From Owenia fusiformis (taxonomy: Eukaryota), in contig CAIIXF020000001.1 in the NCBI GenBank assembly GCA_903813345.2, positions 27,094,001 through 27,158,000 of the forward strand: a stretch of 64,000 bases of DNA. The letters are read 5' to 3'. Each line of letters opens with the position of its first letter. The stretch's first letter is position 1. Positions 1,698-61,740 of the stretch are shown here, piece by piece. The notes under the pieces were generated by a model. That model was given only the letters and a program-made list of their open reading frames with translations. It did not search any database and was not told the DNA's origin. The position numbers were made by a program, and so were the translations under genes.

Positions 1698-1749
1698 TGA
1701 AAAGCAGGCTTGATTCATTCATTCAGCGCAACCTCATCTACATGACAAC

Positions 1750-2931
1750 ATGGATTATATTTGCTCAGTGTGTTCTGGCACATTTGCCAGGAAGGATATT
1801 CTTCTGAGACATATGAGAAACATTCACAAAAAAGATGAGACTAACTTCGATCTCGACTCACCTATACAGTTCAGGCATCCATTTACTAAAATTGTTGCAG
1901 GTCCTACTGGATGTGGAAAGACAACCTATGTTGTCGACCTTATTGATAGAGCCGAACAATTAATCAATCCACCACCACAAAGAATAGTATGGTTCTTCAA
2001 ACAATGGCAGCCTTTGTATGCAGAAATAAAGAGAAAACAGCCTCATATCGAGTTTGTTATGGGACTTTGCGATGACTTGATGAAGCCCGATTACTTCGAT
2101 GGAAATGTGACCAATTTGGTTGTGATAGATGATCTCATGGCGGACCTTAACAAGGCAGTTACATTGCTATACACAGCGGGTTCTCATCACAAAAATATAT
2201 CCATTATCACGCTACAACAAAATATTTTCCCACCCAATGGAGAAAGCAGAACAATGAGCTTAAACAGCCATTACTTGGTTCTATTCAAGAACCCGAGGGA
2301 TCAAAGACAGATAAGTGTTTTGGCATCTCAAATGTATCCTGGAAAGACGCATACTTTACTCGATATTTACAGACAAGCTACGGAAAATCCATTTGGTTAC
2401 TTAGTGGTGGATCTGAAGCAAGAAAGTGAAGATGGTTCGAGGCTTAAGCCTAATGCATTGCAGCAAGTTGCAGAAAGTGTTCCATATACATCATTTCAAC
2501 ATTTTTATAACACGGCAGGGAGCTCATATGCTCAACAGAGGCAAGATATGTCGGAATTCCGACCAAATACCATTGTTCAACCAACTCAGATGGATGCTAC
2601 GTATCCAGGTCCAATGGATGATGTTACTCTAAGAAACTCCTCCGTTTTACATCTCCCTCATTGTAAAGACTGTGGAACAGTGTTGATTACCACAAAACAT
2701 GCAGACATACATCAAAAATATTGCCAATATGAAGACTCTGGTAAAAATGAACCCCATGCTGAAGATTTGAAGGAAAATTATACATTTTCTACTCTGAAGC
2801 AGAACGTGTTGGATGTATTGAAGAAGCTGACACTTTGTATGAAAAATACACTACCAGGGGATTACCAGAGAAGGAAATTACTCAAAAGCTCAAAGCAAAA
2901 CTTTATCCCAAAGCAAAATCTGAGTTTTTAA
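1750..2931 (+). CDS. C2H2 zinc finger + A32/FtsK-like DNA-packaging ATPase of Maverick/Polinton type
   Basis: N-terminal YICSVCSGTFARKDILLRHMRNIH zinc finger, Walker A GPTGCGKT, Walker B LVVIDD, and the NSHYLVLFKNPRD motif typical of Maverick ATPases. Intronless. A second Cys/His cluster (CKDC...H...C) lies downstream. Probably frameshifted near 2815. Confidence 0.88.
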   Translation: MDYICSVCSGTFARKDILLRHMRNIHKKDETNFDLDSPIQFRHPFTKIVAGPTGCGKTTYVVDLIDRAEQLINPPPQRIVWFFKQWQPLYAEIKRKQPHIEFVMGLCDDLMKPDYFDGNVTNLVVIDDLMADLNKAVTLLYTAGSHHKNISIITLQQNIFPPNGESRTMSLNSHYLVLFKNPRDQRQISVLASQMYPGKTHTLLDIYRQATENPFGYLVVDLKQESEDGSRLKPNALQQVAESVPYTSFQHFYNTAGSSYAQQRQDMSEFRPNTIVQPTQMDATYPGPMDDVTLRNSSVLHLPHCKDCGTVLITTKHADIHQKYCQYEDSGKNEPHAEDLKENYTFSTLKQNVLDVLKKLTLCMKNTLPGDYQRRKLLKSSKQNFIPKQNLSF

Positions 2932-3176
2932 ATGACTATGGTGAAATTCTGAGGTTATTTATTGAAGTCAAAGATACCGATGTACATCGAGAAATAGTAG
3001 AAGAAATTGAATTCTTAGTTGATCAAGACATGTCTCTGTCGAGAGCTATCAGAAAAACTTTGGCCAAATATTCTTATATCGCTGATGAAATGTTTAACGA
3101 TGAAGAGTCTATTGACGGACATGATTCAGAAGATACAGATACATCTGGTGAGATGGAAGAAGAACGTAGTGAATGA
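2835..3176 (+). CDS. Helical/acidic ORF, probably the frameshifted C-terminal part of the ATPase protein
   Basis: Has no ATG start (TTG). Its frame is open from 2763 and overlaps the end of ORF1. Protein-like composition with an acidic tail. Confidence 0.55.
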   Translation: MYEKYTTRGLPEKEITQKLKAKLYPKAKSEFLNDYGEILRLFIEVKDTDVHREIVEEIEFLVDQDMSLSRAIRKTLAKYSYIADEMFNDEESIDGHDSEDTDTSGEMEEERSE

Positions 3177-3271
3177 ACGTTTGGTAGTCCCTTTTAGTCA
3201 CTACGATGAGAATATAAAGAGAAAGCTTAGTCATGAGCATCAGATGTTTGAGAAAAAAGGAAGAAGCAACA

Positions 3272-3667
3272 ATGCCTAAGATAGTGCCTTATGTGGATGA
3301 CCCAGAAGTGTGGAAGAAGTTTATACGAGCCCAGGTAGAAGGCAGAGTCATCGAACATGCTGGATATGGTAAGCGAGGAAAACTCAAGTGGATACCAGTG
3401 TCATCAGTCCACGAACCAATTGTTCAACACGTCAGTCCCACTGAAGCTGTTTATCAGAGAGCAAAGGCAGAAATTGACAAGCAGCAGAAAGAAATGGCTG
3501 AACGGGATCGGCCATCAAAGAGAGTTTACAGACAAATGAGTGACAATGATTCCTTTGACCACACCTATAATGGAAATGTGATGAATAGACTTTTTAAGAA
3601 ACCTAAGAAAAAGAGGGATGTTATGGTGTATTCTGGCCCACCTGGAAAACGTCAACGCAGACAGTGA
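3272..3667 (+). CDS. Small basic Maverick-associated hypothetical protein
   Basis: ACAATG context at 3272. Contains YVDDPEVWKKF...VSPTEAVYQRAKAEI and a basic C-terminus (KKPKKKR, NLS-like). Followed by AATAAA at 3720-3725 and a GT-rich tract. Confidence 0.65.
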   Translation: MPKIVPYVDDPEVWKKFIRAQVEGRVIEHAGYGKRGKLKWIPVSSVHEPIVQHVSPTEAVYQRAKAEIDKQQKEMAERDRPSKRVYRQMSDNDSFDHTYNGNVMNRLFKKPKKKRDVMVYSGPPGKRQRRQ

Positions 3668-6325: not shown

Positions 6326-7621
6326 AGCTAGCGAGGCGGTCGTCTTTTTAGGCACAAATGTATTTTATTTCAGTTCAGTTACTGTCCAGCTGAATATTAA
6401 TTTTGACATAGAATCAGCACCTTCAACATATTTTTCCACTGATAGACATGCACAGTGCATACTAAACCATGTCAGCAACAATCCGCCAACTAACAATTCA
6501 GTATCTTCGAGAATATATAAATTGGCTGTATAATCTGGTTGACCAGCAGTAAATAGTGTATTTGGCACTGTCATGCCATCACCAGGATATTCCTAAAACG
6601 ATTTATCGTAGTGGTGGACCATGGGCTTTCAACTAACTCTAAATTGCAAGCCCATGGGTGGACCAAAAGATCATTCAAATACAAAGACGAAACTTCATAT
6701 ATTCACATTGATTATGTAATTACCTTATTATTACCAGTTATCATTAGTTTTTTGTTTAATCCAGCTCAGTATGAGACGCCAAGTAGAAAGGAATCAAATC
6801 CCTTCACACCACTTTAACCGGAATGGATTGGGTTGGTCTGGTACCCCCTTTACATCAGTTCGTGCAGTGACTAAATACAGCCATTTCTCTACCATTTCTC
6901 TTTTTTATAGAGTTAAAATGCCTGGTTAAACAAGATGAATTTTTAATGGAAGCATAAGTGGATGGCAATACCAAAGAGACAAGAGTGTTTACATTGTCTG
7001 GTTATACGTGTACATTGGTTTACTGGGAGCATTTATTATTCTCGCCTGAATATTGATTGGCTAAATGGGTGTCAGAAATAATATATTTTATTAAGGGCTT
7101 GGAAAAAGTCCTTAATATTCCCACGTAGTCCAATCAGGATTGATTAGCTGGTCAGTCGTGGACTGGTGGAAGGCAGGAAACACCATATAAGTAAACATTG
7201 AGAAATTATGTCATATTAACATTTGGATAATTATCCAAGATCTGTAAGGATTGTTTCAGTAATGATCTCTGTTTATTAGGCGTCAGAGGATTTTCTTCTT
7301 TATTTTGATTGATTAGACAAACTGTTCATGTGTCCGCAGAGGATTTGTCATCTAGATTCACATGATTGTTTCGACTTCACCCTTGAAAGTCGAAGATGAT
7401 ATCATTGGATATACTTTTAACTTGTCAACAATCATTTTTTGCACATTTTTGAAATTCAAAATAGAGTTGGATTTGAAAAACGCAGTGATTACTAAGCTCA
7501 GCTCTGTGGCTCTTTACTAGTACTCTGTGTGACCATTTTTCTCATCAAGAGTTAATTTATTTTTCTTGTTAAATTGGAATTTTGTTTAATGATTTATTTT
7601 AGATTTCATTGTGAAATCAAG

Positions 7622-8743
7622 ATGAAAACTGGGACACGGTATTGTCTTTTTGTGGGTGGAATGATCATCAGTGTTTTGATATGTGGAATAAATCTGATGA
7701 AGAAGTGGAATATGGATGACGACACGGAACAAGGAGAAACACTTCCTGCTATTCCAAATGCTACCGAGAGGAGGGACATTGTAAGTGTCAGTATTAAAAG
7801 GAGACAGGAAAATGAATTAGATGAGATCTCCAAAAATGCCGGTGGTCGTAAAAGTTGGATAGTAACGTCGACAGTGTTTAATAAAACTTATATAAAAGAA
7901 ACGACACGGCCAAGTGCATTGGGTGAGGTCATAGAACATGCGAAGATGGTTGCTAAAGAAGCTCGAGGAGGCATAGTTGCTGTGACGATGGTCAATGAAG
8001 CGTATCTTGAACTGACGTACAGTTGGTTGTGTAACACTGCTAACATGAGTGTACATGATAATGTACTTATTATAGCCACAGATGAAACTACTTTGCAAAG
8101 ATTGCAGAAAGACTGGCCTCGCATCAATACAGTTTTGTACTCAATCAACAATTCTGAACTATCCTATAACGAAGTAGGATATGTTCGGTATATGTTGATT
8201 AGAACTCGGTTTCTAGTTGCATTACTCATTAGCAAAATACAGGTCCTATTGTTCGAAGTTGATGCTATCTGGTTTTCCTCGCCATTGCCTTTGTTACAGA
8301 CTCTAGTCCATTACGATCTTGTTGCTGCTCAAATTTCCACGAGGAACCACACTATAGCTGGTGGCTTCCTTTTTCTACAACCATCAGCAATACAGGTATT
8401 AAACCGAGTTGTGTACAGGCTTCAAAAATTTATGAAAATCTTCTCTAATATTGGTGTTAACAAACAGTTGCCCGTGGTGGTCAATGATCAAACAATTCTG
8501 CAAGAAGTTGTGGTATCACAACCAAATCTGAAGTACAAACTACTGGATTTTGACATTATTGCAGATGGACAATGGTACACACGTACAAATGCGCTAAATG
8601 CGACACCTATTGTTTTAAATAACAACTGGATAATTGGAAATAGAGCAAAGATAGCAAGAGCCAAAAAATTTGGACATTGGTTTCAAGACGAGAGCGGTTC
8701 TTGTGACTGGATCCGTGTTAGAAAAATAACAAAGATTGTTTAA
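7622..8743 (+). CDS. Type II membrane glycosyltransferase, nucleotide-diphospho-sugar transferase (GT77/RGXT-like) family
   Basis: N-terminal TM anchor (YCLFVGGMIISVLICGI), then a stem. Motifs: NEAYLELTYSWLCN, VLLFEVDAIW (DxD variant), AGGFLFL, NDQTIL, NNNWIIGNRAKIARAKKFGHWF. Single coding exon with a splice acceptor at 7601-7602 before the ATG. Confidence 0.85.
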   Translation: MKTGTRYCLFVGGMIISVLICGINLMKKWNMDDDTEQGETLPAIPNATERRDIVSVSIKRRQENELDEISKNAGGRKSWIVTSTVFNKTYIKETTRPSALGEVIEHAKMVAKEARGGIVAVTMVNEAYLELTYSWLCNTANMSVHDNVLIIATDETTLQRLQKDWPRINTVLYSINNSELSYNEVGYVRYMLIRTRFLVALLISKIQVLLFEVDAIWFSSPLPLLQTLVHYDLVAAQISTRNHTIAGGFLFLQPSAIQVLNRVVYRLQKFMKIFSNIGVNKQLPVVVNDQTILQEVVVSQPNLKYKLLDFDIIADGQWYTRTNALNATPIVLNNNWIIGNRAKIARAKKFGHWFQDESGSCDWIRVRKITKIV

Positions 8744-23322: not shown

Positions 23323-23836
23323 CCACGCCTAACCATCGACAACATGCATTGACAAAATATACGGGTGTACACTTTAGGTGTACGTTGTCATGTTTGAAGC
23401 GAAAATCGTGATGTAGGTTTTAAAGCATTTATCTAAGGAATATGACGAAGTATTTCATGTTTAATTTTATGTGCATGCTCTTGGCAAAACTTTTAACTTT
23501 CTAATTACGTTAACTGATTCTCAAGCAGAGCACGCGTTTTTTTCTAAGTAATTTCACCCGAGACGTCCATGTGAATATAACCAACATTTTCCAACCGGTC
23601 AATTATGTGGTTGGAATTTCCTTGAAAAAATTGGAGCAATGCTCGAGAATCTATTAACGTAATTGGAAAGTTAAACGTCTAGCCAAGAGCGTGCACGTAA
23701 AATTAAACATCATCACATTCCTTAGATAAATCTTTTAAAACCTACATCACAGTTTTTGCTTCAAACATGACAACACACAGCTAAAATGTACACCCCTAGA
23801 TTTTGTCACTGTACGTTGTCGATGGTTAGACGTGAT
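23323..23836. mobile_element. Fold-back (palindromic) MITE
   Basis: CACGCCTAACCATCGACAAC... at left and ...GTTGTCGATGGTTAGACGTG at right. The arms stay complementary, with mismatches, for >200 bp. Confidence 0.7.
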
Positions 23837-25585
23837 TACGGTGAGAAAATCGGCCGTATGGTTTTAGCAACATGTCACCACATCTTGGTGGTCGCATAAA
23901 AAACGAAAAAAAGAATAAGATTGTTCATGATACGCTGCTATCACAGTGTGTCCCGACCTCGTCATTTACAGAAATACCAGAAAAATTGGTACATCTACTT
24001 TTCGGTAGACTCATAAAAATGAAAAGATAGGTAATTGAAATAAGAATCATACTGTATGCTTGTAGCCAGACATGAGACGGGAAATGCAACTGCCTCGGGA
24101 ATATGTTTCTCTACTAAAACTGTTGAAATAAACTTGCTTTCCGTGACTTCAAAATCCTTCATGCCACCCGAAGGCCCGACTGAAGAAACAGTTCCTTTAT
24201 TTTACTAAGCGATGTCAAAAATTTGGTGTCATTCTCTTGGACAAAAATAAACCACCCTGTGCAACGACACCATCAATCATCCTTCTGAATGGATTTTATT
24301 GGAAGCCAGTTCTGATATCCCATTGAAAGCGGGATAGACCCCCTTCACCCTAGTGAAAGATCATTTTTCTAATCAACGTTCAATCACAACATACACGAAG
24401 ACTTTTAATAAATAATCAGGATAGCCTAAAAACAGATAAAAACATTTATAATTTCAAAAGCATGTGCCTCCGTTTTGCTTTTAGGTCCTTGACAGCTCCG
24501 CATAATCCAAGAATTATAGAAATTATTAAGGAATATTAAAACAGAACGGAGAACAGATCGCCTGTCGCTGTTTACTTGAGTCGTCGTCAATAACATTGTT
24601 ATTTCATATCCATTTGACATCGAAGTACAACTGCCCAACAAGGGACATGCAAAAGAATCGTTTATTAAAAGTCGAAAAGCGATTCAAATACATGCACCTT
24701 TAGAGACAATATATGCTTGGTGGCCTTCTGTGAGCATCTCCCTTGCGACAACGTGTATTGTAAAGATACTGGTGTTTTGAGAGCCATTCGAATTTGATGT
24801 AAAATATATATTTCATTGTAGTTTTCATTTAGCACGTGCAGTACCATTTAGCACATATCATGATGATGATAATGGTGTTTATGTGTAGTTTGATGATGGA
24901 GTTTGACAGTGTGGAGTAAGTAGGGGTAAATATTCATAGAACCGAGGCAAGTGCCAAGGCAGGATTCAGCGATACGTTGTTCGACACAATTGAACTGTTG
25001 GTAGACTGTAAAATGATTTTAACAATTTTATTGTCAACAGAATCATATAACAACAACTTAACACCATAATTCCTAACCCATCCCTACACCATCTGTTGTA
25101 TGATCGCATTTCCAGATTAATATAAAGTCAGAGGAAAATCATCAAGAAAATGTCTCTTAGATAATTGACAGCATTTTGGACGTTACAACACAAACGGTAC
25201 CTGAACTGGTGGAACCACGTACGGCTAGCCGTCTCGCAAACGGGCAAGCAGCCAAACCGATACCCGATCATTTAGCAAATCCCAAACCTTTGCAAACAAA
25301 GGGAGGTCCTTAAACTATGGGATTTTAGTATTTACTTGATCGTATATGGTTTGTTCATCCGCGCTACTGGTAATTGAATCATGCTTTTCAGTCCAGGCAC
25401 TCGACAGGTACTTAACACTTCGTCGGTCAAAGGTACCAAAACAAAATCATTTGGCTACCCATTACTAATAACTGTTGGAGTACAATTGTATTCATATATA
25501 TATGATGTGAATGTCTGACTATTGTTATTTGTCCTTTCCAAATCAATTAAAGATTTTTTGTGTCCGATATCCTTTGGATTTTTTA

Positions 25586-26554
25586 TTAAGAGTACTTTTT
25601 ATCTACTTGAGCTTTCACCCAAGTATACGTCTCAAGCAGACCGTCATAAAGAGATCGACTCGGTTTCCAGCCTAATTTCTGTTGTATAAGGGTGTTGTCT
25701 GAATTTCTACCTCGCACTCCAAGAGGACCACTGATGTGACGGACTTCGATTCGTTTTCCAGATATTTTGATTATCTTATCAGTCAGTTCATTGATTGTGA
25801 CCATTTCTTCTGAACCGATATTCACGGGTCCTTCAAAGTCGGAATTCATCAGCCTGATAACACCTTCTACACATTCATCTACAATTAGAAAGGATCTCGT
25901 CTGTTTGCCATCGCCAAATATTTCTATAGAACCACCATCGTTTGTCATGGCGACTTTCCTACAGATTGCGGCAGGTGCCTTTTCCCGTCCTCCCTCCCAT
26001 GTACCATAAGGACCGAAGATGTTGTGAAAGCGTCCTATACGAACATGCATACCATGGTTACGCGCGTAAGCCAAGAAGAGGCGTTCACTAAACAGCTTCT
26101 CCCAGCCGTACTCAGAATCAGGCGCTGCTGGATAAGCAGAATCTTCCTTGCAGTTTGGTTTTTCTGGGTCAAGTTGGTTGTATTCTGGATACATACACGC
26201 GGAGCTGGAATAGAATACCTTCTTGATGTCCAACTTCTGACAAAGGTCGCAAACATGGAGGTTAATCATAGCCGAATTCTGCATGATAGCTGCATCATTC
26301 TCACCGCTGAAAACGAACTCAGCGCCACCCATATCTGCAGCGAGTTGATAGACCTCATCGATATCGCTAGTTATGATCTTCTTCATCTCGTTCAAATCTC
26401 GCAAATCGGCAACAACAAATTCGTCTCCCATCTCAGCAAAAAATTCATGTCGTTTAATATCGGCCGCTCTAACCCAATATCCATCGCGCTGAAGCCTTTT
26501 CACCAAATGGCCAGCGATAAATCCTCCAGCGCCCAAGACGACTGCTCTCTTCAT
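25586..26554 (-). CDS. GME: GDP-mannose 3',5'-epimerase-like extended SDR (NAD-dependent epimerase)
   Basis: Rossmann motif GAGGFIAGH, then LAADMGG, YSSSACMYP (catalytic Cys), YGWEK (YxxxK), RFHNIFGP, GGREKAPAAICRK (catalytic Lys), GDGKQTRSF and GVRGRNSDNTLI, all hallmarks of GME. Intact 322 aa, no coding introns. Confidence 0.9.
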   Translation of the reverse strand: MKRAVVLGAGGFIAGHLVKRLQRDGYWVRAADIKRHEFFAEMGDEFVVADLRDLNEMKKIITSDIDEVYQLAADMGGAEFVFSGENDAAIMQNSAMINLHVCDLCQKLDIKKVFYSSSACMYPEYNQLDPEKPNCKEDSAYPAAPDSEYGWEKLFSERLFLAYARNHGMHVRIGRFHNIFGPYGTWEGGREKAPAAICRKVAMTNDGGSIEIFGDGKQTRSFLIVDECVEGVIRLMNSDFEGPVNIGSEEMVTINELTDKIIKISGKRIEVRHISGPLGVRGRNSDNTLIQQKLGWKPSRSLYDGLLETYTWVKAQVDKKYS

Positions 26555-26574
26555 GGTTTTGTCACGTCCCGCTG

Positions 26575-26951
26575 CTGAAATAAACGAAGCATTTGATTAA
26601 CGCAATTAACGCAATTCTTACATATTTAGCAGTTTTCGCCAATTAACTTCGAAATTGCTTGATCGCGCGCGGGATTCTGTTATCTCATTCTCTAGGTTAT
26701 AAAAACATCACCAATACGTTGCTCTGAATCAAAAATTTCTATCCTACAAGTTTAGATAAATTTAGATAAATAGTACTTTCTCATTTCCCATAATACCATC
26801 ATGATTAACCATGACATCTCATTTCTTCTCAGCTCAGGTGAAACGGAAAGATGCTAGTATCAGAATGCATAAATACGTAGTCTAAATCCTGAATACAAAT
26901 ATCGTATTATTTTTGCAAATTGAATTGGAATGTGAAGAAACGTTGCTTTAC
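26575..26951 (-). other. Putative 5'-UTR intron of the epimerase gene
   Basis: Minus-strand acceptor TTTATTTCAG/CAG lies 20 nt before AAAACCATG. Candidate donor AAG/GTAAAG at 26951. TATATA at ~27211. Confidence 0.5.
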
Positions 26952-28752
26952 CTTCAATCCTTTTTATTTTTTAAAGTTTCCCTCGAAGTGGTGCAAGTTG
27001 TATTTATTATCACAGCTTTTTGCTAAACCTTTCTATTCGACCATGTGCTATTGCGATGATCTCCTCTCTGGCACTAAACCAATAAACGTTTTGTTTATCG
27101 ATAAGTGTGATAGTGTAACATATTGTATGCTACGCCCCCTTCAATAATTTTTGCAAAATTGACTTTTAATTACACTTCTCTTTTACCATTCCTCCTGATT
27201 ATGACTAAGGTATATAAGGGGTGTTTCATATATGCACACCCCCTCAAAGAAAAGTTTAACCTATTAACGTGTGGTGCATGGTAAATGATAAATAAGTAAA
27301 ATCAGAAACTCGGGACAAATGGCACGAATGGAGATGAAAAATCTCAAGTTGAGCGACATGCAATAAAAACGAGAGCAAATTCTCAATGACTCAAATGTAT
27401 TATTTTAGTTAGAAGTAAAAGGCGAATACTCTCTTATAACTTCTAAACTATACCAAAATATATTTTTCAAGTAATTTCAAATGGTATTAAAACTTTTACC
27501 ATAAGCGTATCGTTCACGGTGCCAAGCGACATTATTAAAGGGACTCATACCAAAAAAGATCTATTCAACATTCATGAGCAGCAGTATTTGTAAAGCGCCC
27601 AAGTGTGTGAAATTCCCAGGATACTCATGTATTTCAATCAAAGTTGCGCGAACACGAAAACATGAAAATAAATATTGATAGGTATATAACCACATCCAGT
27701 CTTGATTTAAATGTAAATAAACAAAATAAAATAAATGAATATGTATATGTTAATTTATGTTATTGAAACATGTGTCAATGATAAGGCAAGATTTACTAAT
27801 ATGCAATAACCTTAAACTAAAAAGAAACAACGACAAATTCTGAGTGAGAAATGCAATCTAAACGATGTGCGTACTTTTGACGCATTATACTTTCGATGAT
27901 GAAATTAAATTATATAAATATAAACCATAAATATAACGACGAGTGCGCATGATCTAAGTCTTTCAAGTAACTAGCAAATTGACATAGGCACGAGTATGAT
28001 CCAAAAGCCCCGCTATAGGTTATAATCGCGAGCAAGTCCCTGCTGAAATCATGAGGTATAAAATTTTTTGTTTAAATTCACTTTCTAAAGTTTCACAGAA
28101 CATTTTATGTTCCAATTCTATCATATCTCTCCAGGCCCCGAACGAACAAACGAACAGACGGATGAACGCATGTACGCACGCACGCACGAACGGACGCACG
28201 CACGAACGAAAGAACGAACGAAATGTATGTGTCCTCAGAAAAGTATACTCCTCGGAACATTGAATTATGTAGAATATACAAAAATCATTGAAGATATGAT
28301 ACAATAGTCGGTAAGTGATAATTTTTTTGAGTCAAATTCTTGTACTATCTTGAAATATGAAATATGTTGTTTCTTGTATAATTCAATACACTGCAACAAT
28401 AACCTATATATGTAACTATATTGTAATTAGCAGTGAAGCACATGATTGAGAGATGATTACTACTGAAAACACATCACAAAATATAGTATCAATTTTATTT
28501 ATTATTTATTTTGATGCTACCCTTACAGTGGCATTCACAATGGAATTTATAATTCAGAAAACATCTGATTACTTGTCATCTTTCACAAACATTGAACCTT
28601 TAGGAGCCTTACTTAAAATACATTTACTAACTAAATATCTTGAATAATATTGTAATAATTTGAAAACCTTTTGTTATAGGGTTTCCTTGTTCCAAAAGAC
28701 ATATGGTACATGAATGTTTACAAAATGCATGGGAGTACAAATAATGATTATA

Positions 28753-29797
28753 CAAGGGGCGATCCATATATTCTGATAAAAATGCTCTCATCTTGTGATT
28801 TTTTCACATATCCCTTTCATTTTTTCAGAACATGTAGGTTATGTAATTACACATACAATGCTAAAATATTTAAGCTATATCTTAAATTAATTTTGAAATA
28901 AGGTTGCCATGGTAACCTGTATTTAGGGTAGGCAGGTCAGTTAAATTATAATGTCTGAAATAGATAAATATGTTAATTTAATAATTCCTTGGTACCTATT
29001 TTAGGCAGATCAAACGCATCTTCCAGTCATTGCCAACTATTCATTGATCTGTTCTATACCCCTGATACCCTTGTTTGATAATTAACACAGTGGGATAGCT
29101 ATCTTTTAATAAGTAACATCTCAATTTATCGTAGTGTTATTCTCTGTCAACAAGCTCTTCTTGCAACCAGATTGTGGATGATCATCAACAGTGACCATGC
29201 CTTCCTCTTTACAATACTACCTATAGATTCTTTATGTAGATATAACACCTTACCCATGCACTAAATGAGGCCATGTAAGTCTCTGACAGTGTCCTCTTAC
29301 TTATTCTTGAAAGAAAATAAAATCTAATGGTATTCCCTAATGTATCTGTTAATGTCACACTATGCATCAGCCACATTAACCTCATCTGACAATTTGATTT
29401 TGGTGTGTCTCATAACATGTAATGTCAATTGGCCCATTCTGTCCTACAATGCTATTGTGATTTGTTGTGATGTTATAGTGAGCACATATTTGTTTAGCAA
29501 CAAACAACGAGTAACAATACCAAACTTTTTTGAAAAAATGCATGATTTCCGTATGCTTTAAAATAATTAAAATAACAAGTTATTATGATATTTATATGTT
29601 ATAATTTAATTGACCTGCCTACCCTTAATACAGGTTACCATGGCAACCTTATCTCATTGATAATTTAAGATATAACTATAATATTTTAGCATTGTATATG
29701 TAATTACATAATCTACATTTTCTGAAAAAATGAGAGGGATATGTGAAAAAATCACAAACTGAGAGCATTTTTATCAGAATATATGGATCGCCCCTTG
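28753..29797 (-). mobile_element. Internally deleted Tc1/mariner element with ~230-bp TIRs and TA target duplication
   Basis: TA-CAAGGGGCGATCCATATATTCTGATAAAAATGCTCTCA...TGAGAGCATTTTTATCAGAATATATGGATCGCCCCTTG-TA. A decayed minus-strand peptide GMVTVDDHPQSGCKKSLLTENN (~29130-29205) resembles the mariner D-x-P-R-S-G-R-P linker. Confidence 0.75.
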
Positions 29798-31030
29798 TAC
29801 AAGTACAAGTGAATTCATATTGTATTAATCATGACATACAGTACAAAAAATACTTGTAGATATTGTAATATATAGGCTGAATAATTATTCGATGTACATC
29901 AGATCTTGAAATTTTGAACCTCTGTTGGAATGGAATGTATGCATAACCACAAATTCATTCAGACCACACAGACAGATCTGGAGGGGGGGGGGGGGGGTGC
30001 AACACATTTTTCATTTTGTTTTTTGGGCCACATTTTCAAAAAGCTCTTCTGATATATTTCAAAAGTGCCTTTTCAGAAGAGAGCCTACATTTATGAAAAA
30101 TGTGACAAAATTTCAGCAAGAAGGCTTGAATTTTCAAAAATATATTCTTGTGAATTTCCAGATCTGCCTCAGAACCTAAAACATGATATGATACATGTAT
30201 CAGTCGAATGATTAATATGATACATGTACCAGTCGAATGATTAATATGATACATGTACCAGTCGAATGATACGTTTAGGTTCCATATATACACTATACCT
30301 CAAGTTGAGATTGGCAATCTCAAGGCTTCAAATTACACATATTTACATATTGTTTAACATACAAAGAGATGGGAACTACTACACAACTACTACACAAAAT
30401 AGGGAACCTCCATACATGTAGTTCTATATTCATAAAACATACATGAAAAAATTACTTTATGACTCATTGTGTTTTCAAACATGTCAAAAATGTACAATAA
30501 ATGGATATCAGGTATCCATGACGCGTTTTTCCAATACAGACACACATAAATAGTTTCACAATTTTTCATTGCTTTAATCTAATAATTCTCTTTTGGCAAG
30601 TATTTTGGAATATCTAAAATACAATTTGATTATATATTATACAAATAATAATAAATAGTAGATAAAACATAATGGAATTAAAAACTACATTTTAGTGCAG
30701 TACTGCACTTTTTCCCCATCCCATATTCCTCTCATTTATCACAAGCATGGTTCATGAAAATTTACATCTTACTATGGCATAAATACTTGCATCATTTTGA
30801 GCAGATTGTTTTGTATGAATATTAGACCATCCGGTGTATATAAAAGATCAGTATCTACCACATAAAACACATATGTAGCATACTTTATTGGATATTTTCC
30901 ATCTATGTACCGGTATGTAAAAGATAACGTCCATTTGCTGATGAAATACATATCCCTAAAAGTCAATAGATGATATCAATCAGTTAAAACTAATGAATCT
31001 AATACAAAACAACAACAAAAATACATGAAA

Positions 31031-31796
31031 TAGTGAAACTTGTATATCCGAACACCTCTCCATATGAACACTTTGCCCAGCCCATATACAAGTATGTTAT
31101 CTCCCATTGACTTACATGTTCATAAAACCTCTCCATGTGAACACTTTGCTCAGCCCATTTACAAGTATGTTATCTCCCATTGACTCACATGTTCATAAAA
31201 CCTTGAAATGTGAACACTTTGCTCAGCCCATATACAGGTATGTTATCTCCCATTGACTTACATGTTCATAAAACCTTGAAATGTGATCACTTTGCTCAGC
31301 CCATTTACAAGTATGTTATCTCCCATTGACTTACATGTTCATAAAACCTTGAAATGTGAACACTTTGCTCAGCCCATATACAGGTATGTTATCTCCCATT
31401 GACTTACATGTTCATAAAACCTTGAAATGTGAACACTTTGTCTCAGTCCCCATATACAAGTATGTTATCTCAAATTGACTTACATGTTCATAAAATCTTG
31501 AAATGTGAACACTTTGCTCAGCCCATTTACAAATATGTTATCTCCCATTGACTTACTTGTTCATAAAACCTTGAAATGTGAACACTTTGCTCAGCCCATA
31601 TACAGGTATGTTATCTCCCATTGACTTACATGTTCATAAAACCTCTCCATGTGAACACTTTGCTCAGCCCATATACAGGTATGTTATCTGCCATTGACTT
31701 ACATGTTCATAAAACCTTGAAATGTGAACACCTGCTAATCTGAACACTTTTGGACAACGGTCCACGAGGCATTTGGATTAGAAAGGTTTCACTGTA
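31031..31796. repeat. MITE containing an expanded 73-bp minisatellite (~9 units)
   Basis: The unit TGAACACTTTGCTCAGCCCATATACAGGTATGTTATCTCCCATTGACTTACATGTTCATAAAACCTTGAAATG lies between AGTGAAAC... and ...GTTTCACTGTA ends. Related unexpanded copies at ~42572 and 61741. Confidence 0.8.
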
Positions 31797-32129
31797 ATAT
31801 ATTGATTTAAAAAGTAATATACTTGTAGATACGATTTCATACACTCTTGAATATTATATTAACATCTTTCTCTCTCTCTCTTTGTTCACATGTGAACCAT
31901 GTCGAAAATTCAACAATTGCATACCATCCTGTTGAAGGTATGTTTCGACTTAGTCAAAGGGATAAAATATTGAATTATTTTGACTATAATGAGCTAATTA
32001 CTTAAGCACCGTACTAAACTAAATGAAAACCTAGGGAGATCACTATTTATTAATGCCAATGCAGTTACAGAATATTGTTTGTCTTGTTCACTCCCTGAAG
32101 TTAAATTGATTGTGTCCAAGATCTACCTA

Positions 32130-59300: not shown

Positions 59301-61275
59301 AACAAAAGTATATAAAGTTGTGATTTTGATGAATATCAGAATCAATAATTATAATAATTTGGTTATCTAATTAACATTTATTAATAAAGATATTTCATGT
59401 AAAAAATACTTTTTGAACATGGTCTTTCATTGTATTTCACTGCATTGCAAGAAAGACCATTGCATTTCATTGCATATCATGATCAATCATTGTATTTCAT
59501 TGCATTTCATGGTTAAACGTGGTATTTCATTGCATTTCATGATCCATTTCAACTCTGACCAATTTTAGACTTGAGACTCTTGTAGAGTTCTTTTTAGCAA
59601 TGAAATACCATGGTATAACCATGGTATTTGATGGTCAGGTTTGACAATGAAATGCTATGAAATACAAGCAACCACGAAATGCAATGATATGCCATGATAA
59701 ATGATAGTTGTGATTATGGCAATGAAATACCATGGTATGACCATAGTATTTGATGGTCAGGTTTGACAATAAAATGCCATGAAATACCACCAACCATGAA
59801 ATGCAATGATAAAACCATGATAAATGAGAGTTATGATTTTGGAAATGAAATGACATGGTATGACCATGGTAATTGATTGTCACACGGTACAATGAAATGC
59901 CATGAAATGTCATCAACCATGATATACAATGGTAATACCATGGTAAATGATGGTCAGGTACATAACAATAAAATATCATGGTATGACCATGACATTTGAT
60001 TGTCAAATTGTACTATGAAATACCATCAACCATGATATACAATGGTAATACCATGGTAAATGATGGTCAGGAACATGGCAATGAAATACCATGGTATGAC
60101 CATGGTATTTGATTGTCACATCTTATAATGAAATGCCATCAACCATGATATACCATGATAAATTATGGTCAGGAACATGGCATTGAAATACCATGGTATT
60201 TGATTGTCACATCTTACAATGAAATGCCATGAAATGCAATCAACCATGATATACCATGGTAATACCATGGTAAATGATGGTCAGGAACATGGCAATGAAA
60301 TACCATGGTTTTTGATGGCAAACTTTGGACATGAAATACCATGAAACATGGTATAACATGATATACCATGGTATACCATGGTCAAAAATTGACCAAAAAA
60401 ACATCATTGCCACCATGGTCAGAGTTGATGGTAATTTCATTGCCGATCATGATAGACCATGGTAAACCATGGTATACCATGGTATCATGGTTTACGTTTA
60501 AACATGGTTATATATGGCTGATAAGGTATTTTCAACTCAGCTTTTATATAAGAAAAATTAAACTGGCATATTTTGCAAAGAATAACTTACCAATTGACTC
60601 TGTTGTAGCTATGGTGGTTATATTATAACCTGTGGTTACATTCGATGCTGTAATACCAGTGGTATTGTCATACATGCCAGTGGTATTGACAAATATGCCA
60701 GTGGTGTTGTCATATATGCCAGTGGTATTGACAAATATGCCTGTGGTATTATCATATATGCCAGTGGTATTGTGATACATGCCAGTGGTATTGACAAATA
60801 CACCAGTGGTATTTTCATATATGGCAGTAGTGTTGTCATACATGCCAGTTGTATTGACAAATATGCCAGTGGTATTGTCATATATTCCAGTGGTATTGTC
60901 ATATTTTCCAGTGGAATTGTCATATATGCCAGTGGTATTCCCATATATACCAGTAGTATTTTCATAACTAGGAGTAACTGTTTCATTGAAGCTCATTGTC
61001 ACATTAAAATGAGTTGGCATAGTAACAGTTTCATTCCAAGATTGTGTACTATTCCATAGTTTAGTACTATTCCTTGATTCAGTGCTGTTCCAACTTTCTG
61101 TATTGTTAATTGGCAATTGTGTACTATTTATTGAATAAGTCCTATTCCAGGTGTCTGAACTGTTCATTGATGATTGTGTATTTGGTGTTGTTTCATCTTG
61201 TGAAAACACCATTGCGGAAAATAATATAAGCACGGAAGCGTGCCACCAAAGATGCATTTTGAAAGATTTGCTCAT
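32506..61275 (-). CDS. Membrane mucin-like protein (MUC4/SUSD2-like): signal peptide, N-glycan repeats, 3 EGF, NIDO, AMOP, vWD, EGF, SEA, EGF, TM, cytoplasmic tail; ~1640 aa, 29 exons
   Basis: Phase-consistent GT-AG exons read manually: 61275-60591, 51909-51805, 51504-51391, 50865-50743, 49269-49148, 48828-48520, 47869-47674, 47130-46878, 46673-46510, 45426-45330, 45113-45011, 44763-44587, 44094-43911, 43561-43304, 43114-42968, 42352-42158, 40523-40338, 39790-39668, 39461-39327, 38758-38625, 38178-38111, 37818-37646, 37427-37284, 36798-36676, 36194-36125, 35881-35826, 35303-35216, 33098-32888, 32691-32506. They sum to 4929 nt and read open to the TAG stop. Confidence 0.88.
36495..36690 (-). 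repeat. ~50-bp tandem repeat that duplicates a splice donor
   Basis: CTTAC (minus-strand GTAAG) in similar context at 36522, 36571, 36620 and 36671. Confidence 0.75.
37646..38758 (-). CDS. Mucin SEA-domain exons
   Basis: WTIDLLDPTSKAYADLATKV|VDGIYKNS...VYEF|SQGSIIARFNIFF, matching the SEA GSVVV-type motif. Confidence 0.75.
38286..38471. mobile_element. Short MITE with CAGGCCCGTAGCCAGG TIRs (related copy at ~44330-44553)
   Basis: CAGGCCCGTAGCCAGG...CCTGGCTACGGGCCTG. Confidence 0.7.
40720..41934. mobile_element. TTAA-flanked non-autonomous DNA transposon (Kolobok-like) with ~200-bp TIRs
   Basis: TTAA-AGGAATATTCCTTGCCA...TGGCAAGGAATATTCCT-TTAA. Confidence 0.72.
40919..41529. mobile_element. 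Tc1/mariner-type MITE nested in the previous element
   Basis: TA-CAGGGTGTCAAATAAGTCCCGTCCCCC...GGGGGACGGGACTTATTTGACACCCTG-TA. Confidence 0.85.
43304..47130 (-). CDS. Mucin AMOP and vWD-domain exons
   Basis: PCPCSWNQARRDTRF, CCTNSNLCHLFYKQRPSNGCSGYVPP, GDPHLITLD..YTFNGLGEYVLM, TQGLLGKFNGD, CGDNLQCQVDY. Confidence 0.9.
45468..46243 (-). mobile_element. HINE/Helentron-like non-autonomous element with (GACG)n microsatellite
   Basis: ACTAG end with a hairpin and subTIR ATCCCAACGAAC. The other end has (GACG)n and TATCCCGACCAAAC..GTTTGTTGGGATA. Confidence 0.65.
47222..47351. mobile_element. Small palindromic MITE (PIF/Harbinger-like)
   Basis: TGCCTGGGTCACATTTGCTCCGATTCAT...ATGAATCGGAACAAATGTGACCCAGGCA. 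Confidence 0.65.
47674..49269 (-). CDS. Mucin NIDO-domain exons
   Basis: LYPY...GGISYFGKIYHRLF|VSMNGYISLG...LIAPWFTDID...VATWYKVPPY|NATFQVVMVTDSRVSFVLYNY. Confidence 0.88.
47980..48277. mobile_element. piggyBac-like MITE
   Basis: TTAA-CCTCTTGA...TCAAGAGG-TTAA. Confidence 0.6.
52980..54048 (-). mobile_element. HINE/Helentron-like element with ~130-bp internal tandem repeats
   Basis: Same end architecture as 45468-46243 (GGACGGACGG, TATCCCTCCGAAC..GTTCGATGGGATA). Repeated AAAATGGCGGCCATTTT/CAAATATGAACAAAATC units. Confidence 0.65.
54750..56889 (+). repeat. Near-identical tandem duplication (1089 + 1051 bp)
   Basis: Units 54750-55838 and 55839-56889. Identical spurious ORFs are offset by 1051. 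The second copy has one 38-bp deletion. Confidence 0.9.
56418..59093. mobile_element. Non-autonomous DNA transposon with CACTG termini, ~250-bp TIRs and apparent ATGGTT target duplication
   Basis: ATGGTT-CACTGGGGAGTATCGTGATGCAACAACACCGTG...CACGGTGTTGTTGCATCACGATACCCCCCAGTG-ATGGTT. Confidence 0.75.
58090..58284 (-). pseudogene. N-terminal fragment of a Crypton/DUF3504-type tyrosine recombinase protein
   Basis: SRFKNVEDEDIISLLESKDSQNTKKNLK...LLVDF resembles the N-terminus of Crypton-derived proteins (recognised from memory). No catalytic domain follows. Confidence 0.45.
59410..60510. repeat. CCATGG/ATGAAAT-rich degenerate satellite
   Basis: Dense ATACCATGGTAT palindromes. A related tract lies at 54720-55260. 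Confidence 0.8.
60591..61275 (-). CDS. Mucin first coding exon: signal peptide + NTTG heptad repeats
   Basis: Signal-like MHLWWHASVLILFSAMVFSQ, 15 x NTTG(I/M/V)(Y/F)x, and a phase-1 donor G/GTAAGT at 60591. Confidence 0.85.
60651..60965 (-). repeat. Coding 21-bp tandem repeat (15 units)
   Basis: CCAGTGGTATTGTCATATATG units encode NTTG-x-Y/F-x. Confidence 0.9.
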
Positions 61276-61740
61276 TAGCTGTTTCTGTTACACTTGCTTT
61301 TGTTGCTCCTAATTGTAGTTTGCTACAGGAAACTGTTTCTCTGAGTAATATTAGGCTATCAGGTGTAATACCAGACCAACCCCACTTATCTTTGACACAT
61401 TCTGAACAAATAAAGACACCCATAGATAATGAGATTATCTCTGCTTTTATACATGTTCCTGGCTGAGTCTTTCCTAGTATAGGCCTTGCATCATGTATAT
61501 GTTTACCATTATCATCGTTCACCAAGAGTCATTGTATACATACAATAATGTCATAGGTTAACATTGTTCTGCTATTTTCCAACATTGATGGTTTCAAATG
61601 TTCATTATTTGTATTGTTGTATGTGTGCTTTGATTCCTCTGAAGTTTGAACTGAAATGTATTTTGATATCTGCATTCATTATTTTATGGCTTCAATTTAG
61701 ATTTTCTTATCATGTCTGGAGAGACCTGGGAAATATCATA

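Follow-up and report, generated by a model that had tools for sequence, protein, structure and literature searches.

A predicted GDP-mannose 3,5-epimerase of bacterial/viral type, probably acquired by horizontal transfer, in the annelid Owenia fusiformis

The epimerase gene and its active site

Here we analyzed 64,000 nucleotides (nt) of the Owenia fusiformis genome (assembly GCA_903813345.2, contig CAIIXF020000001.1, forward-strand positions 27,094,001 to 27,158,000), referred to below as the window, which carry a predicted gene for GDP-mannose 3,5-epimerase (abbreviated GME or GM35E; EC 5.1.3.18) on the reverse strand. The coordinates of the gene and of the surrounding features are given in Table 1. 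The coding sequence (CDS) is a single frame of 322 codons closed by TAA, with no internal stop, and tblastn of the window found this one copy only. The motifs SSACMYP, YGWEK and GREKAP are all present in the encoded protein, P0001, and the intact, intronless CDS with catalytic motifs described in a first-pass annotation of this DNA was confirmed by both the open reading frame (ORF) scan and the translation.

Judged by its sequence, P0001 is a genuine GM35E homologue with an intact active site. Pfam assigns it to the NAD-dependent epimerase/dehydratase family (PF01370, residues 5-247, E 8.4e-41), and its glycine motif GAGGFIAGH (residues 8-16) aligns to GAGGFIASH of the Arabidopsis GM35E structure 2c59. 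A phmmer search against the PDB placed that enzyme at the top (2c59_A, E 4.3e-102, 344.5 bits, P0001 residues 6-320), with four Arabidopsis GM35E entries and 8SG0 spanning E 4.3e-102 to 6.3e-101 (8SG0 at 6.3e-101), while the best short-chain dehydrogenase/reductase (SDR) that is not a GME stood at E 7.1e-26. No NCBIfam model reached its cut-off for P0001, the best being NF047922 (GDP-L-fucose synthase) at 94.3 bits against 500.

According to PMC8787198, the most important residues of Arabidopsis GM35E (AtGM35E) are S143, Y174, K178, C145, K217, R306, R243 and N203, and all eight are kept in P0001, in gap-free parts of the phmmer alignment (Table 1). A known relative to compare is GDP-L-fucose synthase (GMER or GFS), the standard 3,5-epimerase/4-reductase of the GDP-mannose pathway in animals and the best NCBIfam match noted above. 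GMER is a related SDR that also uses a catalytic Cys to epimerize a GDP-hexose at C3 and C5, but the same source tells the two apart by the Lys base (His in GMER) and by the Cys-acidifying Arg (Lys in GMER), and at these two positions the worm protein carries the GM35E residues, Lys192 and Arg283. Conservation among 61 other GMEs is at least 95% in 92 columns of the alignment; at these columns P0001 departs from the consensus twice (G14A and I313V, the former also present in the Arabidopsis enzyme) and its paralogue P0002 three times; seven control GMEs showed between 0 and 6 departures out of 92-94 such columns. P0001 has every feature by which a GM35E is recognized in sequence, namely the SDR fold, the catalytic triad, the Cys/Lys couple, the Arg and Asn residues and closest similarity to GM35E structures. 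It shares the extended-SDR fold and active-site set with Arabidopsis GM35E (PDB 2C59, 2C54, 2C5A, 2C5E), with the Myrciaria-type 8SG0 and with the bacterial MfGM35E.

The N-terminus of P0001 is short, with residue 6 aligned to residue 34 of 2c59, and the start MKRAVVLGAGG resembles that of the bacterial proteins P0003 and P0004; the bacteria-like N-terminus proposed in the first-pass annotation was therefore upheld. The context of the start codon is gacaaaaccATGa. Since an in-frame stop lies 14 codons upstream of this ATG, the bacterial-type start is likely the true one.

Relatives and phylogenetic placement

We searched P0001 against a database of 5.8 billion proteins and examined the 120 best of 8000 scored proteins. 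These comprised the query, P0002 (89% identical) and 118 proteins at 66-72% identity, of which only three carry an organism name, in each case a bacterial one. No animal name other than Owenia appeared among the 120 best for P0001. A glycosyltransferase ORF elsewhere in the window served as a native control for database content; it drew 70 matches from the same database, 8 named Owenia fusiformis (on several scaffolds) and 25 with mollusc names. The nearest relatives of P0001 form an unnamed group of marine/environmental proteins of about 317 amino acids (aa) in length (315-332 aa; P0004, P0009, P0011, P0016, P0045 and P0074), with sources in Tara, ENA, JGI and Logan.

Genome collections gave similar ceilings. 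Species-representative prokaryote genomes reached 64-69% identity across many phyla (best 80 of 460 relatives), the best IMG/VR protein 68% and GenBank phages 61% (cyanophages), in scans for exact 8-residue patterns of one query, which may miss members. Among the matches listed in a metagenome scan, the nearest 317-aa group did not exceed 70%, and when IMG/VR was scanned with P0011 no identity exceeded 72%, the best match again being the contig GVMAG-M-3300027833-31 discussed below. We also sampled 802 bacterial genomes, calling a GME at E <= 1e-100; the maximum was 68% among 401 genomes from the phylum of genome G001 (25 with a GME) and 70% among 401 from the phylum of genome G002 (5 with a GME).

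Placement was determined from a 379-row FastTree and two IQ-TREE quick trees under LG+C20 (as posterior mean site frequencies, PMSF, for the 63-row tree). P0001 and P0002 are sisters with support 100 on a stem of 0.46 (63-row tree). The worm pair falls within an 18-row set together with 15 unnamed metagenome proteins and L081, a protein whose contig carries a giant-virus-bin label; the support for this set, by the Shimodaira-Hasegawa-like approximate likelihood ratio test (SH-aLRT), was 93 and 95 in the two IQ-TREE trees, and the FastTree gave the same placement. Within the set, the 16-row group partnered with the worm pair has a support of 69, and L081 is not the sister of the pair. Named Bacteroidota and a phage group lie next to the 18-row set, without support. 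Members of the set share the length and start of P0001 and are 68-72% identical to it.

Eight eukaryote-labelled GMEs (Populus, Chlamydomonas, Galdieria, Trichomonas, Histomonas, Anaeramoeba, an "ANDGO" entry and a record with a termite label) stand apart as a single group, with support 99-100 on a branch of 0.58. Forcing the worm pair to join them lowered the log-likelihood by 90.8, and the constraint was rejected by the approximately unbiased (AU) test (p-AU 3.1e-41). Among cluster representatives near the eukaryote group, look-ups named only Populus, Trichomonas and a Daviesbacteria metagenome-assembled genome. Based on the tree placement and the AU test, the worm GME is of the short bacterial/viral type rather than the plant/protist type, which retains the bacterial half of the earlier "plant/bacterial-type" description and removes the plant half.

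This result also bears on whether the gene could have been inherited vertically, as a eukaryotic GME of the same lineage as those of plants and protists. Such descent has some appeal, since eukaryote-type GMEs are widespread in protists and the first description of GM35E activity came from an animal, the snail Helix pomatia (PMC8787198), but we regard it as very improbable given the rejected clade and the lack in P0001 of the N-terminal extension of about 27 residues found in the plant enzyme. Moreover, the Trichomonas GME has a single animal label among its 120 best relatives, that of the termite record, which groups with sequences of the gut-flagellate type. This record (P0420, annotated "epimerase/dehydratase") shares 66% identity with the Trichomonas GME, lies with parabasalid-type sequences in the tree and probably stems from flagellates of the gut, not from the termite itself.

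Within the 18-row set, one member alone carries a label, and it offers a clue to the source. L081 belongs to the IMG/VR contig GVMAG-M-3300027833-31 (also L241), and its GME is 68% identical to P0001. On this contig the gene sits inside a compact cassette for sugar activation and sulfation (Table 1), which could build a sulfated glycan of the L-galactose type. The phosphomannomutase of the cassette is of eukaryotic type (PF03332, E 8.7e-85), and the GC content of the locus is 0.24. The worm gene differs from its L241 counterpart in being solitary and in lying on its own 0.46 stem.

It is conceivable that the immediate source was a large DNA virus, giant or otherwise infecting eukaryotes and carrying such a glycan cassette, rather than a bacterium. 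Consistent with this, the nearest group did not exceed 70% in the 802 bacterial genomes or in the best 80 species-representative loci, and the Atlas clusters closest by features include several dominated by viruses. However, the giant-virus bin label of L081 is unconfirmed, no search having been made for hallmark virus genes, and the Atlas virus labels are those of Uroviricota, which are phages of bacteria. The worm pair is also not sister to L081, the low-supported 16-row group being its partner, and 8-residue-pattern scans of one query can miss bacterial members. A viral origin as the immediate source therefore seems rather unlikely, though it deserves more weight than vertical descent.

Compared with plant GM35E, the worm gene lies in an animal chromosome, has a short prokaryote-style N-terminus and belongs to the bacterial/viral branch (split support 99-100), and the worm enzyme is known from sequence alone. 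Since the worm pair is nested among non-animal sequences (SH-aLRT 95) and the gene lies among animal genes, the horizontal acquisition proposed in the first-pass annotation is supported. On these comparisons, there is good support for an annelid having acquired an enzyme of known type by horizontal transfer, followed by duplication and constraint.

Chromosomal setting, transcription and constraint

P0001 is recorded on a 62,201,769-bp contig (a 62.2-Mb scaffold), and the window has a GC content of 0.351 with no N. Short contigs from an independent run, X1, span both ends of the CDS into the flanks, covering 25496-25726 on the stop side and 26318-26709 on the start side, and 14 runs of five studies, filed either under this species label or under a second one, contain the stretch or part of it. 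The GME gene is physically embedded among animal genes. None of the 15 flanking ORFs (at least 75 aa, 18-31 kb, GME excluded) matched Pfam, which argues that no bacterial neighbours were transferred with it.

Bacterial contamination or a chimeric assembly join is an obvious concern for an intronless ORF of bacterial type with a GC content above that of its surroundings. The large scaffold, the animal neighbours, the X1 junction contigs and the 14 runs make it very unlikely, and further evidence leaves it hardly any weight: the 120 best proteins contain nothing closer than 72% except P0002, and the AT-rich flanks contain repeats of eukaryotic style and lack bacterial ORFs. The first-pass annotation had placed animal repeats on both sides of the gene. 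Repeats do flank it, but "animal" is a label that these data cannot assign.

The GC content of the CDS (0.448) exceeds that of the 5-kb flanks (0.323 and 0.360), in agreement with the first-pass annotation. The accompanying claim of CpG enrichment over the flanks did not survive: the CDS has an observed/expected CpG ratio of 1.01, and nearly all 1-kb windows between 20 and 28.5 kb give values of 0.8-1.4, the exceptions being two windows at 22-23.5 kb with 0.64 and 0.78. The ratio then falls to 0.1-0.4 across 28.5-33 kb. Because the immediate flanks are as CpG-rich as the gene, the contrast marks a domain boundary 2 kb upstream rather than the gene itself, and the switch near 28500 looks like the border between an unmethylated and a historically methylated domain. 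The GC content at third codon positions (GC3) is 0.433 in the GME and 0.29-0.36 in six further ORFs or exon fragments from the same window. Among GME relatives GC3 ranges from 0.15 to 0.84, following their own genomes, so it is uninformative on the donor.

The 5' side of the gene carries splice-like motifs. A pyrimidine-rich tttatttcag/CAG lies 20 nt before the ATG, and a donor-like gaag/gtaaag near 26953/26952. Read across this putative splice, the candidate first exon runs into an in-frame TAA with no ATG after it, so it would be untranslated. The acceptor and Kozak-like context described in the first-pass annotation are thus present as motifs; splicing itself found no support, with no joint at 26574/26952 in the raw RNA runs X15 and X17 (a joint being 3 or more reads), where about 10 reads are uninformative on this point. 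On the 3' side, the contig of run X13 described below extends to at least 25472, 114 nt beyond the stop, so the AATAAA overlapping the stop codon is not the sole 3' end.

Transcription is indicated but weak in the samples read. In the stranded RNA run X17, the CDS bins have a depth of 0.28-3.99, with nearly all first mates on the forward strand (0.12 opposite, in one bin), which is the orientation expected of a reverse-strand gene. Run X1 had been guessed to be RNA, yet 28 of its 30 bins showed depth, as DNA would; the word shares of runs X1-X12 are therefore uninformative on expression.

Two further versions of the gene allowed us to look for constraint. The paralogue P0002, from a record named Owenia fusiformis on a 62,201,769-bp contig, is 89% identical to P0001 over 322 common residues. 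The two differ at 34 of 322 positions, and the differences favour less conserved columns (mean conservation 0.59 vs 0.75). P0002 has a Thr at the first position of the triad, which the [ST] motif allows. It also has a 62-aa N-terminal extension with a hydrophobic start, and it remains alignable through the 14 codons upstream of the P0001 ATG. In tblastn of the window, no upstream exon similar to this extension was found; given this and the in-frame stop before the ATG of the window copy, the extension was treated as an unverified feature of the gene model.

The second version comes from run X13, which carries the second species label ("organism B"). A 1234-nt contig from this run aligns to 25472-26539 at about 94% identity, with 54 mismatches and 11 gaps. 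X13 covers only the gene and repeats (16 of 30 bins), a pattern that fits a transcriptome, the run type being a guess. Among the 10 best-supported CDS differences, with 83 further rows outside the table, nine are at third positions and eight are synonymous, the two replacements being G295S and E270D. A separate variant, 25940 G>T (Asn205 to Lys), occurs in one X1 contig and four X17 reads and yields the residue of P0002; it may be an allele, gene conversion or cross-laid reads of the paralogue.

The mostly synonymous differences in organism B, the concentration of paralogue differences in variable columns and the long stem suggest that the worm GME is under purifying selection in its host, and they favour an old gene maintained by selection over a recent insertion. 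The contrary case would be a gene that is foreign and integrated but young, barely transcribed and doing little, with a frame kept intact by too little time for decay. The very low RNA depth (X17 gave about 10 reads, X15 about 1), the intronless CDS and the unconfirmed promoter, splice and poly(A) sites would all fit such an insertion, as would the position of the gene in a block with a CpG ratio near 1, which may go with low germline expression in invertebrates. We nevertheless consider it unlikely. Paralogues that are 11% apart both keep their active-site residues and 89-90 of the 92 near-invariant columns, and a 0.46 stem apart from all relatives implies long residence, in addition to the bias of both sets of differences noted above. 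As for the "domesticated" of the first-pass annotation, embedding in the genome is clear, and domestication beyond that is weakly shown, with no intron in the CDS, an unconfirmed intron in the 5' untranslated region (UTR) and very little RNA.

Several further features of the window were noted. The glycosyltransferase used as a control lies 17 kb from the GME, and a functional link between the two is not shown; some of its matches are annotated as xylosyltransferase-like, and the family is expanded in the worm. The 247-aa ORF near the end of the window probably represents one exon of a secreted or mucin-like protein with heavy N-glycosylation. At the other end, the 405-aa ORF that opens a run of three has a P-loop weakly similar to the adenovirus IVa2 and poxvirus A32 packaging ATPases (E 3e-4 and 6e-3), and the three ORFs may be a Polinton/Maverick-like remnant. 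A transposon vector for the GME was considered on the basis of this Polinton-like ATPase ORF (1714-2931) and rejected, as it lies 22 kb off with the native glycosyltransferase gene between. The 37-nt element within the candidate intron has an X1 depth of 29,587, compared with about 20-85 nearby (an excess of about 1000-fold), and attracts hundreds of RNA reads on both strands, with symmetric X17 repeat bins (42.7 vs 44.7). Its loose ends are diverse on either side, and the element resembles the conserved core of a repeat family that is transcribed and very abundant. At 23800-23834, where an inverted-repeat element ends, there is a similar pile-up.

Table 1 Features of the window, residues of P0001 aligned to Arabidopsis GM35E, and the gene cassette of the contig L241. 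Positions are those of the window unless stated otherwise.
Feature	Position	Strand	Basis or remark
GDP-mannose 3,5-epimerase CDS (P0001)	25586..26554	-	ORF scan; intronless; 322 aa and TAA stop
AATAAA hexamer overlapping the stop codon	25582..25587	-	Motif scan; second AATAAA at 25027-25032
5' leader, 20 nt, between candidate acceptor (tttatttcag/) and ATG	26555..26574	-	Read from sequence; A-rich aaaaccATG
Candidate 5' UTR intron	26575..26952	-	Acceptor-like and donor-like motifs only; holds 37-nt high-copy repeat 26797-26833
Candidate non-coding first exon	26953..27220	-	Trace stranded RNA: X17 depth 0.46, bin 26968-27111
Three consecutive ORFs	1714-3667	+	First, 405 aa: C2H2 zinc finger, then P-loop
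Glycosyltransferase ORF, 384 aa, single exon	7589-8743	+	PF03407, E 1.4e-18; N-terminal membrane anchor
Inverted-repeat element	23324-23834		Flank of GME
Inverted-repeat element	28748-29802		Flank of GME
29-bp triplet	30186-30272		
Tandem array, 73-bp period	30935-31804		8 registered copies of 283-nt reference
NIDO / MUC4 C8-3 exon-like fragments	43-49 kb		Animal-family neighbour of GME
247-aa ORF	60544-61287	-	Signal-like start; many tandem N-x-T sequons (NTTGIYDNTTG... repeats)
Triad for C4 oxidation/reduction, [ST]xnYx3K (AtGM35E S143/Y174/K178)	P0001 S118/Y149/K153		Aligned columns
Acid-base couple (AtGM35E C145/K217)	P0001 C120 (SSACMYP)/K192 (GGREKAP)		Aligned columns
Cys-acidifying Arg (AtGM35E R306)	P0001 R283 in GVRGRNSDN		Aligned column
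Diphosphate-binding Arg (AtGM35E R243)	P0001 R220 in GKQTRSF		Aligned column
Conserved Asn (AtGM35E N203)	P0001 N178 in RFHNIFGP		Aligned column
Cassette around GME of L241	L241 1-16957		PAPS synthase (PUA, ATP-sulfurylase, APS kinase), two Sulfotransfer_2, GT2, GME, phosphomannomutase, pyrophosphatase, ManC, GlmS

Proposed role and precedents

L-galactose is rare in animals. We consider it likely that this chromosome-scale scaffold of Owenia fusiformis carries a horizontally acquired GM35E of the short bacterial/viral type, which would synthesize GDP-L-galactose (GDP-L-Gal) for secreted glycans. The donor would have been an uncultured marine microbe or a large DNA virus, and the transfer would be older than the gene duplication and, if the second species label represents a separate lineage, older than the split of the two labels as well.

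Because P0001 has no N-terminal extension, the enzyme is predicted to be cytosolic, acting as an NAD+-bound extended SDR. Its mechanism may be carried over from that of the family (PMC8787198). Tyr149, Lys153 and Ser118, with the tightly bound NAD+, would oxidize C4 of GDP-alpha-D-mannose, after which Cys120 and Lys192 would invert C5 and C3, with Arg283 acidifying the Cys. The NADH would then return its hydride and re-reduce C4, giving GDP-beta-L-galactose and, as a side product, GDP-L-gulose. The substrate would be drawn from the universal GDP-mannose pool, and the product would constitute a nucleotide-sugar pool that animals normally lack. Fucosyltransferases are described in PMC8787198 as promiscuous and able to accept GDP-L-Gal, and fucosyltransferase-like enzymes in the Golgi would most probably consume this pool, adding L-galactose to secreted glycans, for example those of mucus, tube cement or the egg coat.

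GDP-L-galactose and GDP-L-gulose are also precursors of ascorbate in plants (PMC8787198), and L-galactose dehydrogenase-like sequences occur in some metazoa (PMC4396506), so the enzyme could instead feed a plant-like L-galactose route to ascorbate, a role the first-pass annotation had entertained. This appears improbable. In the available passages of PMC4396506, VTC2, the committed step, is reported exclusively from Viridiplantae; no partner of the pathway is found within the 64-kb window, and the GME of the GVMAG contig sits in a glycan cassette. On these grounds, a role in L-galactose glycans is more likely than one in ascorbate synthesis.

Several points weigh against the glycan account and the transfer on which it builds. 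We know of no L-galactose glycan from this animal, and none turned up in a literature search that was poorly targeted to this question. For the transfer, the nearest set has no named member, and the excess of GC3 over neighbouring genes is modest. Animal orthologues from molluscs or other annelids at less than about 66% identity would rank below the 120 best proteins. The tree supports are SH-aLRT values of quick searches, without bootstraps, and the constrained clade was chosen after the tree had been inspected. A 2011 survey counted one metazoan GME homologue in nr (PMC3220709, Table 1). GM35E activity has been known from a snail since 1967 (PMC8787198), so that "not an animal enzyme" is too strong a statement. 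For the activity of the gene in its host, the CDS has gained no intron, and the X15 and X17 reads gave no splice joint, transcript start or poly(A) site; the X17 signal comes from about 12% of that run, and four of its reads share one start and carry 8 or more differences, making an allele or the paralogue a possible source. None of the runs listed for the stretch is recorded as RNA, and X13 is RNA only by guess.

The closest precedent, by analogy, is nematode rml-3, a bacterial dTDP-4-dehydrorhamnose 3,5-epimerase domesticated by an animal, through which nematodes gained L-rhamnose (PMC10473587). In both cases a bacterial nucleotide-sugar 3,5-epimerase has entered an animal lineage with its catalytic residues kept, and rml-3 confers an L-sugar that is foreign to other animals. 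The two enzymes are otherwise unlike. Rml-3 belongs to the RmlC family and uses dTDP, whereas the worm GME is an SDR that would use GDP and make a different product. Likewise, rml-3 has gained four introns, occurs nematode-wide and has a proven function, whereas the worm GME has no CDS intron and a function predicted from sequence.

The characterized GM35Es in the available parts of the 2022 review (PMC8787198) are plant, algal and bacterial, with no animal enzyme among them. Our literature search on GME, horizontal gene transfer (HGT), annelids, galactogen and Owenia found no paper tying GME to an animal gene, and the available main text of a 2026 HGT compendium, whose gene tables are in supplements, mentions no epimerase, mannose or Owenia. 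Tentatively, and with less than even confidence, we propose that an annelid lineage gained the one enzyme required for GDP-L-Gal from a marine microbe or large DNA virus and duplicated the gene, and that its own GDP-fucose transporter and fucosyltransferase-type enzymes place L-galactose, possibly sulfated, on mucus, tube or egg-coat glycans. This would make it the first animal GME known as a gene, some 60 years after the discovery of the snail activity.

If the enzyme is inactive or silent, the locus would be one more neutral foreign insertion. If it is active, it would be a clean, duplicated and constrained case of a sugar-nucleotide enzyme of microbial origin that became fixed in an animal outside the Ecdysozoa, and it would provide a concrete gene with which the synthesis of L-galactose glycans in animals can be tested. 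Should the tentative proposal above also prove true, it would represent the acquisition of a "new sugar" by an animal, parallel to L-rhamnose in nematodes.

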